64,000 nucleotides of DNA from an uncultured Thermus sp. (GTDB lineage Bacteria; Deinococcota; Deinococci; Deinococcales; Thermaceae): positions 29,056-93,055 of the forward strand of contig CAMTVD010000016.1 of NCBI GenBank assembly GCA_947085095.1. The letters run 5' to 3'. The translations under genes were made by a program, and so were the position numbers. The notes below the pieces were generated by a model. It was not told the DNA's origin. It worked only from the letters and a program-made list of their open reading frames with translations, and ran no database searches. Position 1 is the first letter of the stretch, and every line of letters starts with the position of its first letter. Of the stretch, positions 10,236 through 17,608 are shown one piece after another.

Positions 10236-12805
10236 CCGACTCCTTTGAGGCGCTAAGGGCGGAGGTAGACCTTCTGGGCCGCCTTCTGGGCGAGGCCATC
10301 AGGAAGGTTTCCGGGGAGAGGTTCTTCGCCCTGGTGGAGGAGGTGCGCCTCCTTTCCAAGGCTAGGAGGCAGGGGGACGAGGCCGCCGGGGAGGCCCTCC
10401 TTTCCCGGGTGGAGGGGCTTTCGGTCCTCGAGGCCGAGGCCCTGGTGCGGGCCTTCACCCACTACTTCCACCTGGTGAACCTGGCGGAGGAGCGCCACCG
10501 GGTGCGGGTGAACCAGGAGAGGGCACAGGCGGAGACCCCTGAGAACCCCAGGCCCGAGGGCTTTTTGGCCCTGGCCCTGGCCCTGAAGGCCCGGGGGCTT
10601 TCCCTGGAGGAGGCCGAGGCCCACCTGAACCGCCTGGAGCTCCTCCTCACCTTCACCGCCCACCCCACGGAAACCCGCCGCCGCACCCTGCGGCACCACC
10701 TGGAGCGCCTCCAGGCCGAGCTGGAAGAGGGCGGGAGGGATCGCCTCTTCGCCCGGGTGGCCCTCCTCTACGCCACCGAGGAGGTCAGGAAGGCGCGCCC
10801 CAGCGTGGAGGACGAGATCAAGGGGGGGCTTTACTACCTGCCCACCACCCTGTGGCAGGCCATCCCCAAGGTGGTGGAGGGGCTGGAACTGGCCCTGGAA
10901 AGGGTCTACGGCCGAAGGCCCCGCCTCAAAAGCCCCGTGCGTTTCCGCAGCTGGATCGGCGGGGACCGGGACGGGAACCCCTTCGTCACCCCCGAGGTCA
11001 CCGCCTTCGCCGCCCGCTACGCCCGGGAGGTGGCGCAAAGGAAGTTCTTAGAGGAGCTCGAGGCCCTGGTGCGGGACCTCTCCCTCTCCGAGGCCAAGGT
11101 GCCCGTGCCCTGGGAGGTGCGCCAGGGGGGCGAAGGGGTGGAGCGGTTTCCCGGGGAGGCCTACCGCCGCTTCTTCGCCCGGCTCCACGAGGGGCTCGCC
11201 CGGGGGGAGGCCACCACGGAGGGGCTCCTCTCCGCCCTCAAGGCGGCGGAAGGGGGGCTGCGGGCGGTGGGGCTTGCGGAAGTGGCGGAAAGCTTCCTGA
11301 GGCCCCTCGAGGCCCGCCTCACCGCCTTTGGCCTGGAGCTTGCCCCCCTGGACCTCCGGGAGGAGTCGGGGAAGCTCCTCCAGGCCGCGGCGGAGCTCCT
11401 TCGGCTGGGCGGGGTCCACCCGGACTTCCTCTCCCTCTCCCCCGAGGCCCAGGAGGCCCTTCTCACCGAGGAGCTGAAGACGGCGAGGCCCCTCCTCCCC
11501 GTGGGGGAGGAGCCCCAGGGGGAGGCCTTGAGGGTGGCCCTGGGGGCTTTTCGGGCCTGGCGGGACAAGGGGGCCCAGGTGGTCTCCATGACCCACCACC
11601 CTTTAGACCTCCTCGCCGTCTTCCTCCTGGCCCGGGAGGTGGGGCTTTACCGCCCCGGCAGGCCCCTTCCCTTTGACGTGGTCCCCCTCTTTGAGACCCT
11701 GGAGGACCTGAAGCGGGCCCCCCTGGTCCTCCGCCGCCTCCTGGAAAACCCCGTCTTCCTGGCCCACGCCCAAGGCCGGGGCGGGGTGGAGGTCATGATC
11801 GGCTACTCCGACTCCAACAAGGACGCGGGCTTCCTCATGGCCAACCTGGCCCTTTACGAGGCCCAGGAGGCCCTGAGCCGGGTGGGGGAGGAGAAGGGGC
11901 TTCCCGTCCACTTCTTCCACGGCCGGGGCACCTCCACCGCCCGGGGGGGCGGCCCCGCGGGCCGGGCCATCGCCAGCCTGCCCCCGAGGAGCGTGGGCCG
12001 CCGCCTCCGCCTCACCGAGCAGGGGGAGGCCCTGGCGGACCGCTACAGCCACCCCGATCTGGCGGTGCGCCACCTGGAGCAGCTCCTCTTCCACTTCGCC
12101 CAGGCCGCCCTGGGGGAAGGGACGGAGCCCCAGGCCTCCTGGCGGGAGGCCCTTTGGCGGGCGGGGGAGGAGAGCATGGCCCGCTACCGGGCCCTCTTGG
12201 CCGAGGAGGGCTTCTTCCCCTTCTTTGAGGCCCTCACTCCCATCCGCGAGATCGGGGAGCTTCCCATCGCCAGCCGCCCCGTCTACCGCCACGGCCGGGT
12301 GCGGGACATCCGGGACCTCCGGGCCATTCCCTGGGTCATGGCCTGGACCCAGGTGCGGCTTCTCCTCCCCGGCTGGTACGGCCTTAGCGCCCTGGAGGGG
12401 CTTCCTTTGGACCTCCTCAGGAGCATGTACCGGGAGTGGCCCTTCTTCGCCACCACCCTGGAGAGCGCCGCCATGGCCCTGGCCAAGGCGGACCTGGGGG
12501 TGGCCCGGCTCTACCTGCGCCTGGTGCCGGAGCCCCTTCACCCCCTTTTCCACCGCATCGCCGGGGAGTACCTCCGCACCCGGGAGCTCCTGGAGGCCAT
12601 CTTCCAGGCCCCCCTCCTCCACAACCAAAAGACCCTGGAAAGGCAGACCGCCCTGAGAAACCCCTACGTGGACCCCATCAACATCGTCCAGGTGGAGCTC
12701 CTAAGGCGCTACCGCTCCCCTGGCGGCCGGGAGGACGAGGCCCTGAGGAAGGCCCTCCTCCTCTCCCTCCTGGGGGTGGCGGCGGGCCTGAGGAACGCGG
12801 GGTAA
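10232..12805 (+). CDS. ppc: Phosphoenolpyruvate carboxylase
   Basis: [40 protein letters not shown] and the C-terminal RNAG. Confidence 0.97.
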
Positions 12806-12815
12806 GATGGGGCCG

Positions 12816-13355
12816 ATGGAGCCCTTGGGCCACCACCAGGACCAGCGGGTGGGGGTGTTCGTGGACACCCAGAACCTCTACCACTCCGCCCGCGATTACT
12901 ACGAGCGCAACGTGAACTTTGAGAGCCTCCTGCGCTTCGCCGTGGGGGGAAGGCGCCTGGTCCGGGCCACGGCCTACGTGGTGGAGCGGGAGGGGGACAC
13001 CTCCGCCTGGCCCTTCATCTACAAGCTCTCCACCATCGGCTACCGGGTGCGGCGCATGTACCTCACGGTGAAGGAGCTGGGGGAAGGGGGCAAGCCCATC
13101 TATGAGGGCAACTGGGACATGGGCATCGCCGCCGACATGGTCCGCCTCATGCCCCATCTGGACGTGGTGGTCCTGGGAAGCGGGGATGGGGACTTCGTGG
13201 AGATCCTCGAGGTCCTCATGGAAAGGGGCATCCGGGTGGAGGTCATCGCCTTCCGGGAAACCACCTCCCAAAAGCTCATAGACGCCGTGGACCGCTTCGT
13301 CCACCTGCCCGAGATCCCCAACCCCTTCATGGAACCCAAAAACCCCGAGCGCTAA
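12816..13355 (+). CDS. NYN/LabA (DUF88) PIN-like domain protein
   Basis: VFVDTQNLY...GNWDMGIAAD...LGSGDGDF. Start is 12816 (7 nt after TAAGAT) or 12807. Confidence 0.88.
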   Translation: MEPLGHHQDQRVGVFVDTQNLYHSARDYYERNVNFESLLRFAVGGRRLVRATAYVVEREGDTSAWPFIYKLSTIGYRVRRMYLTVKELGEGGKPIYEGNWDMGIAADMVRLMPHLDVVVLGSGDGDFVEILEVLMERGIRVEVIAFRETTSQKLIDAVDRFVHLPEIPNPFMEPKNPER

Positions 13356-13358
13356 GCT

Positions 13359-14396
13359 ATGGCAGGACTGGAAGCTTACGATTACCACCTTCCCCCGGAG
13401 CTCATCGCCCAAGAGGGGGTGGAGCCCCGGGACCTGGCCCGCATGATGGTGGTCTATAGGGAAGGTCCCTTCCGGGTGGAGCACAAGAGGGTGCGGGACC
13501 TCCCGGAGTTCCTGCGCCCCGGGGACGTGCTGGTCTTCAACGAGAGCAAGGTGATCCCCGCCCGCCTCCTGGCCAGGAAGCCCACGGGGGGCAGGGTGGA
13601 GGTCCTCTTGGTGCGGGAGAGGGAGCCCGGCCTCTGGGAGGCCCTCCTGGGCCCTGCCAGGAAGGCTCCCGTGGGCACGGAGCTTTCCTTCCTTTCCCCC
13701 AAGGACCTGGAGCCGGTCCCCGGCTTGAAGGCGAAGGTGGTGGGGGTGGAGGAGGACGGGGTGCGCCTCCTCCGCTTCCAGGGGGACCTGGTGGGCCACC
13801 TGGAGGAGGTGGGGGAGGTGCCCCTTCCCCCCTACATCAAGGCCCAGATTCCCCTGGAGCGCTACCAGACGGTCTACGCCAAGCGGCCGGGCTCCGTGGC
13901 CGCCCCCACGGCCGGCCTCCACTTCACCCCGGAGCTTTTGGAAAGGCTTCGGGCTATGGGGGTGGAGCTTCACTTCCTCACCCTCCACGTGGGCCCCGGT
14001 ACCTTCCGCCCGGTGAAGGGGGACCCCGGGAAGCACGAGATGCACGCCGAGCCCTACGAGATCCCCGAGGCCACCGCCTGGGCGGTGAACCGGGCCAAGG
14101 GGGAGGGGAGGCGGGTCATCGCTGTGGGCACCACGGTGGTGCGGGCCCTGGAGAGCGCCTACCGGGAAGGGGAGGGGGTGGTGCCGGGGGTGGGGGAGAC
14201 CCGGCTCTTCATCCGCCCCCCCTACGTCTTCAAGGCCATAGACGCCCTCTTCACCAACTTCCACCTCCCCCGCTCCACCCTCCTCATGCTGGTGGCCGCC
14301 TTCCTGGGGAACGAGCGCACCATGGCGGCCTACCGCCTGGCGGTGGCCGAGCGCTACCGCTTCTATTCCCTGGGCGATGCCATGCTGATTCTTTGA
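13359..14396 (+). CDS. queA: S-adenosylmethionine:tRNA ribosyltransferase-isomerase
   Basis: YDYHLPPELIAQ, PLPPYI, RYQTVYA, SVAAPTAGLHF, TNFHLP, YRFYSLGDAM. Confidence 0.97.
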   Translation: MAGLEAYDYHLPPELIAQEGVEPRDLARMMVVYREGPFRVEHKRVRDLPEFLRPGDVLVFNESKVIPARLLARKPTGGRVEVLLVREREPGLWEALLGPARKAPVGTELSFLSPKDLEPVPGLKAKVVGVEEDGVRLLRFQGDLVGHLEEVGEVPLPPYIKAQIPLERYQTVYAKRPGSVAAPTAGLHFTPELLERLRAMGVELHFLTLHVGPGTFRPVKGDPGKHEMHAEPYEIPEATAWAVNRAKGEGRRVIAVGTTVVRALESAYREGEGVVPGVGETRLFIRPPYVFKAIDALFTNFHLPRSTLLMLVAAFLGNERTMAAYRLAVAERYRFYSLGDAMLIL

Positions 14397-14758
14397 AGAA
14401 AGGCCAGGGCTTTCTCCTTGGGAAGGAGGGTGGGCTCCCGCTCCGGGGCGAACCAGGCGAGGAGGGCGGCCAGGTCCTCCTCCGGGGTGTAATCTTTGGG
14501 GGCCAGGAGGACCTTGTGGTCTCCGTCCAGGAGCTGGAGAAGGCCCACCACCTCCCCTTCCGCCTCGCCCAGGGGGTGCGGGGGGCCCAGGAGGACGGCG
14601 TCCACCTCCTCCCCGTCCGCGGGGTTCAGGAGGCCGGGGAGGAGGCCGTAGTTCACCGGGGCGGGCCGCTCCTCCCTCACGGGGAAGAGCCGCCCTTCTT
14701 TCCAGGCGTGCCGAAGGGGGCTTCCCTTGGTCCACTCCACGATCATCTTGAGGCGCAT
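14363..14758 (-). CDS. Short family I inorganic pyrophosphatase-like protein
   Basis: PVNYGLLP, DGEEVD (canonical DGDPLD) and D-G-D-H-K. Only 131 aa. Confidence 0.7.
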   Translation of the reverse strand: MRLKMIVEWTKGSPLRHAWKEGRLFPVREERPAPVNYGLLPGLLNPADGEEVDAVLLGPPHPLGEAEGEVVGLLQLLDGDHKVLLAPKDYTPEEDLAALLAWFAPEREPTLLPKEKALAFLQRISMASPRE

Positions 14759-14760
14759 GG

Positions 14761-16107
14761 CTAGAGGCCCAGGATCAGGCGGGCCACGCTCAGGTAGATG
14801 AGGAGGCCGATCACATCGGAGAGGGTGGCGATGAGGGGGTTGGAGACCAGGGCCGGGTCCACGCCGAGCCGCCTGAGGACCATGGGGAGCGTGGAGCCCA
14901 CCAGGTTGGCGAAAAGGACCAGGAGGAAAAGGGACAGGCCCACCACTGGGATGAGGGGGCCATAGCCGTCCAGCCCCACCTTGATGAGGAGGACGGAGGC
15001 CAGGGTGAGGCCTAAAAGGCTTCCCACCACGGTTTCCTTGAGGAGGACCCGCCGCCAGTCCCTGAGGTCCAGGTCCCGGGTGGCCAGGGCCCGGATGATG
15101 AGAGTGGCGGACTGGTTGCCCGTGTTTCCCCCGGTGCCTATGAGGACGGGCACGTAAAAGGCCAGGGCGGTCACCGCTTCCAAGACGCTCTCAAACCCCT
15201 GGAGGATGGAACTCGTCACCATTCCCGTGAGGATCAGGATGATGAGCCAGCGCACCCGGGCGAGCCAAAGCCCCACCGGGGAGGCCTGGCTGTAGACCAG
15301 GTCGGGCACGTCCACGGCGGCCAGCTTGTGGATGTCCTCGGTGGCCTCCTCTTCCAGGACGTCCAGGACGTCGTCCACGGTGACGATGCCCACCAGGCGG
15401 CCTTCCTCGTCCACCACGGGGAGCACGGTGAAGTCGTAGTCGGCCATGAGGCGGGCCACCTCTTCCTGGTCCGTGTCCGTGCGCACGTGGACCACCTTGG
15501 GGTTCATGATCTCCGCCACCTTGGTCCTGGGGTCAGCCACGATCAGGTCGCGCAAGGACAGCACCCCTTGGAGGCGCTCCTCTTCGTCCACCACGTACAG
15601 GTAGTAGATGGTCTCGGCATCGGGGGCGGCCCGGCGCAGGAAGCGGAGCACCTCGTCCACGGTCATGGTGGCCCGCACCGCCACGTACTCCGGGGTCATG
15701 AGGCCACCGGCCTCGTCCTCCTCGTACTGGGTGAGTTCCTCCACCTCGGCCCGGGTCTTTGGGTCCAGGGCCTCCTTGAGCCTTTTGGCCAGGGCCTCGT
15801 CCTCCTCCTCCACCGCCTGCAGGGCATCGGCCAGGTCGTCCAGGGAGAGCTCGGTGAGGAGTTCCTGCACCCGCCAGGGGGGGAGGGTCTTCAGGTACTC
15901 CGCCTGCTCCTCGGGGGCGAGGTTGGCGAAGACCTCCGCCGCTTTCTCCTTGGAGAGGAGGGTGAGGAGGACGTAGCGGTGCTCCCCGTTGAGGTCATCC
16001 CAAAGGAGGAGGAGGTCCTGGGGATGGGTCTCCTCCAAAAGGCGCTTGAGGGCCAGGGTGTCGCCCTCTTCCAGAGCTTGGAGAAGGGGGGAAAGGGTTT
16101 TCTCCAC
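14761..16107 (-). CDS. mgtE: Magnesium transporter MgtE
   Basis: N domain, CBS pair (AGGLMTPEY, YYLYVVD), GNTGNQSAT and VDPALVSNPLIATLSD. Confidence 0.97.
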   Translation of the reverse strand: MEKTLSPLLQALEEGDTLALKRLLEETHPQDLLLLWDDLNGEHRYVLLTLLSKEKAAEVFANLAPEEQAEYLKTLPPWRVQELLTELSLDDLADALQAVEEEDEALAKRLKEALDPKTRAEVEELTQYEEDEAGGLMTPEYVAVRATMTVDEVLRFLRRAAPDAETIYYLYVVDEEERLQGVLSLRDLIVADPRTKVAEIMNPKVVHVRTDTDQEEVARLMADYDFTVLPVVDEEGRLVGIVTVDDVLDVLEEEATEDIHKLAAVDVPDLVYSQASPVGLWLARVRWLIILILTGMVTSSILQGFESVLEAVTALAFYVPVLIGTGGNTGNQSATLIIRALATRDLDLRDWRRVLLKETVVGSLLGLTLASVLLIKVGLDGYGPLIPVVGLSLFLLVLFANLVGSTLPMVLRRLGVDPALVSNPLIATLSDVIGLLIYLSVARLILGL

Positions 16108-16151
16108 GGGCGGCCTCCTTTCTGGCCGAAGGCCGCCCGAAGGCGGCCTTC
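16107..16151 (-). promoter_or_regulatory. Mutually exclusive hairpins in the mgtE 5' leader (anti-sequestrator vs RBS sequestrator)
   Basis: GAAGGCCGCC-UUCG-GGCGGCCUUC is a perfect 10-bp stem. Its 3' arm can instead pair with GGAGGCCGCCCG (SD to first base of the start codon). Confidence 0.7.
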
Positions 16152-16185
16152 AGGGCCTGGGACTCGAGGGCAGAGCCTCCGACAT
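16150..16185 (-). CDS. Putative proline-rich leader peptide MSEALPSSPRP (MgtL-like)
   Basis: ATG TCG GAG GCT CTG CCC TCG AGT CCC AGG CCC TGA, 9 nt after the -10 box. The stop codon overlaps the 5' arm of the hairpin. Confidence 0.6.
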   Translation of the reverse strand: MSEALPSSPRP

Positions 16186-16194
16186 ACGCTTTCT

Positions 16195-16223
16195 AGCCTA
16201 TAGGGAGGGGGTTTCTCCGTCAA
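16195..16223 (-). promoter_or_regulatory. SigA promoter for mgtE: TTGACG-N17-TAGGCT
   Basis: Near-consensus hexamers with 17-bp spacing. Confidence 0.8.
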
Positions 16224-16256
16224 CCTGGCCCACTAGAAATGTGCGAAAAATTGCGG

Positions 16257-16286
16257 TTGACACGCTCAAGGGGTCTGCCCTATCCT
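16257..16286 (+). promoter_or_regulatory. SigA promoter for the ffh operon: TTGACA-N18-TATCCT
   Basis: Consensus -35 box, with the -10 box ending about 30 nt upstream of the ffh ATG. Confidence 0.7.
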
Positions 16287-16315
16287 GGAGCCCGGCCTTT
16301 GGGGCCAGGAGGGGC

Positions 16316-17608
16316 ATGTTCCAGAACCTTTCGGCGCGACTGCAAGAGGCCATCGGCCGCCTTCGGGGGCGGGGCCGGATCACCGAGGAGGACCTGAGGG
16401 AGACCCTCAGGGAGATCCGCCGGGCCCTCATGGAGGCCGACGTGAACCTCGAGGTGGCCCGCGCCTTTGTGGAGAGGGTGCGGGCGGAGGCCCTGGGGAA
16501 GCGGGTCCTGGAGAGCCTCACCCCCGCAGAGGTGGTCCTGGCCACCGTCTACGAGGCCCTGAAGGAGGCCCTGGGGGGCGAGCCCCAGCATCCCACCCTC
16601 AAGGACAAGAACCTCTGGTTCCTGGTGGGGCTCCAGGGCTCCGGCAAGACCACCACCGCCGCCAAGCTGGCCCTCCACTACAAGGGGAAGGGCAGGAGGC
16701 CCCTGCTGGTGGCCGCGGATACCAGGAGGCCCGCCGCCAGGGAGCAATTGAGGCTTCTGGGCGAGAAGGTGGGGGTGCCCGTGCTGGAGGTGATGGACGG
16801 CGAGCCCCCAGAGTCCATCCGCCGCCGCGTGGAGGAGAGGGCCCGCCTCGAGGCCCGGGACCTGGTCCTGGTGGACACCGCCGGCCGTCTGCAGATAGAC
16901 GAGCCCCTTATGGCCGAGCTGGCCCAGCTCAAAGGGGTGCTGCGCCCTGATGAGGTCCTCCTGGTCCTGGACGCCATGACCGGGCAGGAGGCCCTGGCCG
17001 TGGCCCAGGCTTTTGAGGAGAAGGTGGGGGTTACGGGCCTCGTCCTCACCAAGCTGGACGGGGATGCCCGGGGCGGGGCGGCCCTTTCCGCCCGGCACGT
17101 CACGGGAAAGCCCATCTATTTCGCCGGGGTTTCCGAGAAGCCCGAGGGTCTGGAGCCCTTCTACCCTGACCGCCTGGCGAGCCGCATCCTGGGCATGGGG
17201 GATGTGGCCACCCTGGCGGAAAAGGTGCGGGCGGCGGGGCTGGAGGCCGAAGTCCCCAGGTCCGCCAAGGAGCTTTCCCTGGAGGACTTCCTCAAGCAGA
17301 TGCAGAACCTCAGGCGCCTGGGTTCCTTCTCGGAGGTCCTGGGCATGCTCCCCGGGGTGCCCAAGGGATTGCAGGTGGACGAGAGGGCCTTTAGGCGCCT
17401 CGAGGCCATCGTCCTCTCCATGACCCCCGAGGAGCGTAAGGACCCCCGGGTTCTCAACGGCTCGCGGCGCAAGCGCATCGCCAAGGGGAGCGGCACCTCG
17501 GTGCAAGAGGTCAACCGCCTTCTCAAGGCCTTTGAGGAGACCAAGGCCCTGATGAAGTCCCTGGAAAAGAAAAAGGGCCGGGGACTCATGGGAATGTTCA
17601 GGAGGTAG
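16316..17608 (+). CDS. ffh: Signal recognition particle protein
   Basis: [34 protein letters not shown] and M domain SMTPEER. AGGAGG RBS upstream. Confidence 0.98.

Follow-up and report, generated by a model that had tools for sequence, protein, structure and literature searches.

Upstream of the magnesium transporter gene mgtE of an uncultured Thermus species, we found a leader of about 80 nt that is very likely a real and conserved cis-regulatory element. It lies in a stretch of 64,000 nucleotides (contig CAMTVD010000016.1, positions 29,056 to 93,055), subsequently called the window, whose numbering is used throughout. With moderate confidence, we interpret the leader as a cis-acting translational attenuator of mgtE that would consist of four RNA segments and a very short open reading frame (ORF). 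This interpretation is based on the anatomy of the leader, its conservation, the covariation of two hairpins (A and B), their energy balance and the effects of in silico ribosome masks; that the ORF is translated we infer. An earlier note on this DNA had proposed a Mg2+-sensing attenuator at the same place, and its interpretation as a whole is partly supported by the results below. All leader features are on the minus strand of the window, in the divergent intergenic region between ffh and mgtE:

16223-16218, minus strand: -35 element TTGACG of the mgtE promoter, read from the sequence
16200-16195, minus strand: -10 element TAGGCT, after a 17-nt spacer
16185-16150, minus strand: leader ORF MSEALPSSPRP* of 11 sense codons, with the ATG at 16185, 9 nt past the -10 element, and the TGA at 16152-16150
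16165-16171, minus strand: segment 1, GCCCUCG in codons 5-7, invariant at the nucleotide level; its possible partners are segment 2 and, for the CCUC, the Shine-Dalgarno (SD) sequence
16152-16146, minus strand: UGAAGGC, the part of segment 2 within the 5' arm of hairpin A that is the partner of segment 1
16151-16128, minus strand: hairpin A (segments 2:3), GAAGGCCGCC-UUCG-GGCGGCCUUC, a 10-bp core that a U.G and a C-G pair extend to 12 bp (16153-16126)
16139-16107, minus strand: hairpin B (segments 3:4) with a 9-nt loop, in which CGGGCGGCCUUC (16139-16128) pairs with GGAGGCCGCCCG (16118-16107) through 12 pairs, one of them U.G
16114-16123, minus strand: extended SD of mgtE, AGAAAGGAGG, complementary over 10 nt to CCTCCTTTCT, with which the 16S gene of this genome ends
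16107-14761, minus strand: mgtE coding sequence, 448 aa, GTG start, with Pfam domains MgtE_N, CBS and MgtE and a match to NCBIfam TIGR00400 (410 bits, cut-off 233)

The promoter, the 11-codon ORF and both hairpins had been described in the earlier note, and each was found on the minus strand where it had been placed. The ORF reads ATG TCG GAG GCT CTG CCC TCG AGT CCC AGG CCC TGA, and its UGA stop lies inside the 5' arm of hairpin A. Hairpins A and B share segment 3 and are therefore mutually exclusive, in a 1:2 / 2:3 / 3:4 layout. The 5' arm of B is the 3' arm of A plus two loop bases, while its 3' arm comprises the SD GGAGG, the spacer and the G of the mgtE GTG start. This exclusive pairing over the SD and the first base of the start codon is also as the earlier note had it. 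What it had missed is a third partner, the invariant GCCCUCG within the ORF, which can pair either with the 5' arm of A or with the SD. The 16S sequence CCTCCTTTCT is presumably the mature 3' end of the rRNA, and the SD that matches it is so strong that sequestration would be a sensible way of controlling mgtE. The sequence directly after hairpin B is GUGGAGAAAAC. A scan of the minus strand from 15900 to 16500 gave no terminator-like site, and a 3:4 terminator with a U-tract, as in a classical transcription attenuator, is not present in the leader.

The -35 element is TTGAC(G/A) in all 30 aligned loci, including two with a different upstream gene. The -10 element occurs as TAGGCT, TAGCTT, TAGCCT, TACCCT or TACCTT, with TA...T kept, and stands 17-18 nt from the -35 element in each case. 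A scanner for consensus promoters did not call the mgtE promoter, whose -10 element matches at 3 of 6 positions; its sole call was the ffh promoter on the plus strand (16257-16286). As far as can be read from the sequence, the transcript probably begins 2-4 nt ahead of the leader ATG.

All 32 genomes of the genus matched the leader region, and promoter, ORF and both hairpins could be aligned in 29 of 30 loci. We read 34 leaders altogether, namely these 30, the divergent leader L062, the metagenomic leader L143 and two from the sister genus g6. MAFFT misplaced the arms of L062 and of the g6 leaders, and the alignment holding them was left out of the counts. The promoter spacer, the hairpin loop and ORF codons 2-4 vary freely, while little or no variation is seen in the stems, in GCCCUCGAGU and in the SD region. 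In three genomes ffh is located about 20 kb away. The two of these that were read (L029 and L030) have unrelated upstream sequence, yet promoter, ORF and hairpins are kept. In T. thermophilus HB27 and HB8 the peptide takes the form MREGPLPSSPER*.

A covariance model built on the OFF conformer (hairpin B formed) was searched in 151 genomes of the phylum. Each of the 27 congeners sampled and the genome of the window had a single strong hit, thus a single-copy element. No match was obtained in 102 genomes of other families nor, within the family itself, in the genera g2, g3 and g5. Wherever it was found, the leader stood directly 5' of a transporter gene. A metagenome scan with a loose pattern returned at least 119 stretches; among the 80 loci listed, only four were true leaders and one was a new variant (L143, MQEALPSSPIP*). 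One leader, L003:1704-1804 of genome G021, has a shared arm that is one base short (GGGC-GCC). This genome is 65% complete and in 620 contigs, and the missing base may reflect misassembly and not a true bulge.

One close relative has lost part of the element. On the mgtE tree the window's genome pairs with G019 (L006:1707-1797), its closest relative by this gene. The two MgtE proteins are 97% identical, but G019 has lost the leader ATG and segment 3. Here 1:2 is extended to a 10-bp hairpin, and the SD is predicted to be more open (probability of being unpaired 0.44-0.65). G019 also carries a second, distant mgtE paralogue with 33% identity.

Hairpin A has 12 pairs, and 99.7% of 339 alignment cells are paired, compared with 25-57% in slid controls. 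Its loop varies in length and sequence, two of its pairs show double changes, and L007 has a G-C for C-G swap. Hairpin B, also of 12 pairs, is paired in 99.1% of cells. Its pair 68:99 occurs as A-U in 10 rows, G-U in 10 and G-C in 8, with one other combination; on a tree of the mgtE coding region this amounts to at least 8 state changes, and A-C is never seen. As the 5' base of this pair lies in the loop of A, the pair belongs to B alone. Pair 67:100 at the start codon is C-G in 23 rows, U-G in 3 and A-U in 2, with one other. A-U is found in exactly the two species with a TTG start, and pairing fails only in the species that starts mgtE with ATG. Owing to their positions in the loop of A and at the start codon, these covarying pairs support B specifically. 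The divergent leader L062 has AA/UU replaced by GG/CC and C-G by U-A, and with these changes it retains an A of 13 bp and a B of 12 bp; compensatory changes preserve A, B and 1:2 both there and in the g6 leaders.

The third helix was obtained from RNAalifold. It joins GCCCUCG of the ORF to UGA(A/G)GGC of the 5' arm of A in 7 pairs, of which 90% of cells are paired; the 7 bp are perfect in the 10 rows with GAGGG in segment 2 and in both g6 leaders. A further pairing, 1:4 between the CCUC of segment 1 and the SD, appears in the minimum free energy (MFE) structure at 65-75 °C when A is formed. We also considered a pairing of segment 1 with a GAGGGC in the early mgtE coding region. This candidate was dropped, the site being GAAGGC in several species (alignment by eye).

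The predicted states lie close together in energy. At 70 °C, the means over 29 species were -12.8 kcal/mol for A, -11.5 for B and -12.7 for B together with 1:2, that is, near-isoenergetic. At 37 °C, B with 1:2 wins in 29 of 29 species. When A is compared with B alone, A is the more stable hairpin in 15 of the 29 species at 37 °C and in 25 at 80 °C, and the MFE structure is B at 37 °C and A at 60-75 °C. Taken together, comparison of the aligned leaders indicates that the element is not due to chance, and this case is carried by conservation and covariation, not by thermodynamics.

We consider, with good confidence, that the leader ORF is under selection as an ORF. The ATG is present in 33 of the 34 leaders (29 of the 30 aligned, L062, L143 and both from g6), and the stop falls at the same structural site, inside the 5' arm of hairpin A, in all 33 ORFs (TGA in 32, TAG in L062). 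The genus-wide alignment suggested by the earlier note thus bears out both its conserved short ORF with a stop in A and its covarying stems. Four independent indels fall within the ORF, and all are multiples of three: +3 in L029 and L030, +6 in L026, +27 in L062 and -3 in g6. Outside the ORF, loops and spacers change by 1-2 nt. No ORF that we read contains an in-frame stop, while TAG and TGA are frequent in the two other frames. Synonymous variation occurs at codon 5 (CTG/TTG), codon 9 (CCC/CCT/CCG) and codon 11. The ORFs range from 10 to 20 codons, and residues 2-4 and 9-11 are variable.

Within the ORF, LPSS is exact in 31 of 33 cases, and CCC UCG AGU shows no variation even at synonymous sites. 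Both Ser codons are invariant in the leader though non-preferred (AGT accounts for 2.4% and TCG for 10% of Ser codons in long ORFs), so that the LPSS stretch must be under at least partly RNA-level constraint. Of the prolines, Pro6 alone is universal among the 33 ORFs. Another residue stands at codon 9 in 4 of them and at the last codon in 10, and consecutive prolines occur in one species only. The earlier note had pointed out that the three Pro codons of the window's ORF are all CCC, which is true, but CCC is the preferred codon and makes up 65% of Pro codons in long ORFs. A Glu at codon 3 (codon 2 in g6) is found in some species only, and many have Gly instead.

In the attenuator that we propose, segment 1 is GCCCUCG in codons 5-7, segment 2 the 5' arm of A with the stop codon, segment 3 the shared arm, and segment 4 the SD with the first base of the mgtE start. 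The 2:3 state (hairpin A) would leave the SD available and mgtE ON. The 3:4 state (hairpin B plus 1:2) would sequester SD and start, hence OFF. At growth temperature the two states differ little in energy, so that the choice between them would depend on where the ribosome stands on the leader ORF. A ribosome at the last codons or the stop would bury segment 2, and segment 3 would go to the SD. A ribosome dwelling on L-P-S-S would cover segment 1 and keep 2:3 intact. The naked RNA would be mostly OFF. The model supposes that the ORF is translated from a transcript beginning 2-4 nt ahead of its ATG, that speed over LPSS varies, and that the varying input would be the divalent-cation (Mg2+) sufficiency of the ribosome. 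For Mg2+ or another divalent cation as input, which is suggested by the controlled genes and by precedents, we see about even chances. A dependence on Pro codons or EF-P would be pure analogy, and Pro-specific sensing is less likely than a Mg2+/divalent-cation signal.

We folded the leaders of three species at 65-75 °C with a ribosome footprint of -12 to +14 around the P site held single-stranded. In free RNA, the probability that the SD is unpaired was 0.16-0.32 at these temperatures and 0.10-0.32 overall. The SD is thus mostly paired in naked RNA, contrary to the idea in the earlier note that failure to initiate leaves the ribosome-binding site free. With a ribosome at the stop codon the probability was 0.04-0.18 and the fold was B with the SD paired, which agrees with the OFF step of that note. 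With the P site on Pro6, it rose to 0.52-0.63 in L009 and L029, and with the P site on Ser8 the SD was mostly paired again. The folding model thus reproduces, in silico, an OFF state on complete translation and an ON state on a pause over segment 1.

The cassette is not confined to the genus. Both genomes of the sister genus g6 contain it (L204:378-474 in G066 and L210:1500-1596 in G067), complete from the promoter through the 10-codon ORF and the three helices (1:2, A and B) to the SD and the start codon; the junction lies directly after the latter. The short ORFs read MEGLPSSPAA* and MEGLPSSHRT*. They do not precede mgtE, which has a short plain leader in g6. Behind the cassette is an operon for an ATP-binding cassette (ABC) transporter with a fused double permease, for its ATPase, which has AAA_assoc_C as its C-terminal domain, and for an NRAMP transporter. 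The ABC system resembles nitrate/sulfonate/taurine importers, for which the NCBIfam hits were weak and all below cut-off. The NRAMP protein has DPGN and MPHN motifs, which we take to be typical of Mn2+/Fe2+ transporters. Since the same leader heads this operon, the cassette is not mgtE-specific. Among 31 other genomes of the window's genus, 15 have the ABC permease; the cassette stood upstream in none of 10 regions read, and an NRAMP gene stood behind the permease in none of three looked at.

Elsewhere in the family, mgtE has leaders of other designs. Of the 18 mgtE upstream regions read from g2-g5, 17 have a conserved leader of another kind, which is longer at about 135-180 nt (L063-L078, L080). 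It has a strong SD with GTG and an ORF that starts with MED.S.SR in 16 of the 18 regions. A long-range helix (CCACGG..CUUCC) pairs its own SD and start with a CUUCC-rich stretch, and a CUUCCUUCC stretch could alternatively cover the mgtE SD. These leaders matched no Rfam family and possibly represent a second undescribed mgtE control element. The only sequence they share with the genus leader is the 7-mer TCGAGTC, which is not significant, and homology of the two was rejected. The family has at least three mgtE leader designs and no M-box.

Several points weigh against the proposed attenuator. The leader ATG stands 9 nt past the -10 element (10 in some species and in g6), and no usable SD precedes it. 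Where a promoter-like site is followed by a long ORF in this genome, the distance is most often the leaderless one of 6-7 nt (12 sites), while 9 nt occurs at 3 sites. Because the leader ATG is off this peak and has no usable SD, efficient initiation on the ORF is not assured. The conserved peptide may reflect RNA constraint only. Helix 1:2 is without covariation, both sides being invariant, and a C.A mismatch interrupts it in 19 of the 29 rows. A sign test on independent contrasts for the pair of B that covaries best had 3-4 pairs only, too few to test. Folding energy is unremarkable (z = -1.48; 14 of 200 shuffles fold as well). The ON effect of the masks depends on the assumed footprint and on the species: the earlier note's stall at the upstream Pro codon opens the SD in L009 and L029 but hardly in the window's own sequence (0.12-0.24 overall, 0.12-0.17 at 65-75 °C). 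The link to Mg2+ is weakened by the ABC permease/NRAMP operon behind the g6 cassette. Four RNA-seq runs of a congener consisted of assembled contigs that all span the full 801 nt, and are thus uninformative on transcription start, strand and level. In Creative Commons-licensed PubMed Central papers and bioRxiv preprints, to which our literature search extended, we found no transcription start map, ribosome profiling or Mg2+ expression data for the gene.

It is possible, if unlikely, that the leader is an RNA-only switch in which the A/B equilibrium senses temperature or binds Mg2+ directly, the ORF being untranslated and conserved because its RNA is constrained, for example as initial transcribed sequence and as segment 1. 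The predicted shift from B at 37 °C to A at 60-75 °C, with A outdoing B in 15 and 25 of 29 species at 37 and 80 °C, would suit this explanation, as would the LPSS codons that are invariant even at synonymous sites and an ATG without SD 2-3 nt past the leaderless distance. However, an untranslated ORF would hardly account for four of four indels being in frame, for a stop whose position is kept even as TAG in L062, or for the avoidance of in-frame stops while off-frame ones are frequent; Rfam (window region, E value up to 10) gave no known riboswitch, and no complex tertiary motif was found. Alternatively, the same attenuator could respond to amino-acid or tRNA supply (Ser and/or Pro codons) or to general translation capacity instead of Mg2+, which we consider rather improbable. 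The universally kept codons are Leu-Pro-Ser-Ser, both Ser codons are non-preferred, and the g6 cassette heads an importer operon of the nitrate/sulfonate/taurine-like kind and not mgtE. Yet there are two Ser codons only and no known link of Ser to either operon, whereas a divalent-cation transporter (MgtE or NRAMP) is encoded in both. In addition, ribosome-mediated Mg2+ sensing has a precedent at enterobacterial Mg2+ transporters (PMC8092293, PMC11552253).

A stable GC hairpin near the 5' end could also be constitutive, with A protecting the mRNA end, B setting a low fixed translation rate and nothing being sensed. The activity of T. thermophilus MgtE is reportedly gated by cytosolic Mg2+ at the protein level in structural work, which would fit. 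We nevertheless think this highly unlikely, as mutually exclusive helices that are isoenergetic over some 30 species, a stop locked into one hairpin arm and a whole cassette moved to another operon in g6 together exceed the needs of a stabiliser. Finally, enterobacteria are known to possess small proteins that act as modulators of Mg2+ transporters, and the conserved ORF might encode an 11-residue peptide that is itself functional, for example as a channel modulator. A hydrophilic peptide of 10-20 codons with free residues 2-4 and 9-11, and a core conserved at the nucleotide level, makes this scarcely credible.

A more far-reaching form of the attenuator model, to which we assign only a small chance, would make the cassette a portable ribosome-based sensor of divalent cations whose input is initiation on a nearly leaderless mini-ORF. 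It would have moved as a whole, start codon included, among cation-transport operons that are not related to each other (mgtE versus the ABC/NRAMP operon of the sister genus), while other genera of the family have the second, unrelated and undescribed mgtE leader. As near-leaderless initiation needs intact 70S ribosomes, low Mg2+ would cut the traffic to the stop codon and free the SD.

Around the leader, the gene on the far side was identified as ffh by Pfam. Downstream of mgtE, two ORFs were noted:

13359-14396, plus strand: queA (Queuosine_synth, 425 bits), converging on mgtE
12678-14735, minus strand: 685-aa ORF without a Pfam or NCBIfam family, antisense to queA

The latter is in all likelihood one of the long spurious ORFs that GC-rich genomes contain, and mgtE is probably monocistronic. 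The ffh promoter is TTGACA-N18-TATCCT on the plus strand (16257-16286). Upstream of it lies an A/T-rich block (16230-16256, reading GAAAAATTG on the plus strand) that is strongly conserved within the genus and partly also in other genera, and a small GGCC..GGCC hairpin is located between the promoter and the ffh SD. A second MgtE paralogue with 31-34% identity to the window's protein occurs in G005, G019, G029 and G047 of the family.

By its logic, the nearest known system is Salmonella mgtQ-mgtB, which is analogous and not homologous. In that system (Choi et al. 2021, PMC8092293), an 8-codon ORF overlaps 1:2/3:4 versus 2:3 stem-loops, 3:4 occludes the ribosome-binding site of the Mg2+ transporter, and the upstream ORF requires ribosome-destabilising acidic codons. 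Here, too, a very short ORF (11 codons) overlaps mutually exclusive helices, of which 1:2 is backed by invariance only, 3:4 covers the SD, and control would be translational. The two differ in that there is no sequence relation, the host belongs to another phylum, the element stands at the 5' end of a transcript and not between two operon genes, its ORF has no SD and begins 9-10 nt past the -10 element, and the acidic codons essential in mgtQ are not conserved. Moreover, with the stop codon inside segment 2, complete translation should repress here and not promote as in mgtQ. The resemblance to MgtL-mgtA and CorL-corA of E. coli and Salmonella is looser. These share a leader ORF with Pro codons before a Mg2+ importer and alternative leader structures, and the efficiency of upstream ORF translation is inverse to transporter expression (PMC11552253). 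The peptides are unrelated, however, and these systems use Rho-dependent termination in long leaders, in contrast to SD sequestration in a leader of about 80 nt without a visible terminator.

The four-segment logic, in which a ribosome stalled on segment 1 selects 2:3, is that of the trp, his and leu attenuators. The output here differs in being translational, without terminator hairpin and U-tract, and there is no run of regulatory codons beyond the two Ser. The M-box (ykoK, RF00380) occupies the same genomic position in the mgtE 5' leader and presumably serves the same purpose, but it is a large metal-binding RNA without leader ORF. The earlier note had seen no M-box, and RF00380 indeed had no match in the window from 15800 to 16600 at E values up to 10, nor in any of the 151 phylum genomes (gathering score 44 bits), while the B. 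subtilis and L. lactis controls were detected. Like the earlier note, which knew of no such leader, we found no description of it in the literature searched; the element is a variant on the known leader-peptide principle.

The textbook control of mgtE is the M-box riboswitch, and to our knowledge leader-peptide control of Mg2+ importers is established only in enterobacteria. If the attenuator is true, it would be an independent and purely translational solution in a deep-branching thermophile phylum without M-box. That the cassette heads another transporter operon in g6 amounts to a natural swap experiment. Thermus is also the source of the standard ribosomes and the standard MgtE of structural biology, so that both the switch and the complex of a stalled ribosome with the leader would be unusually accessible to cryo-electron microscopy and in vitro translation.

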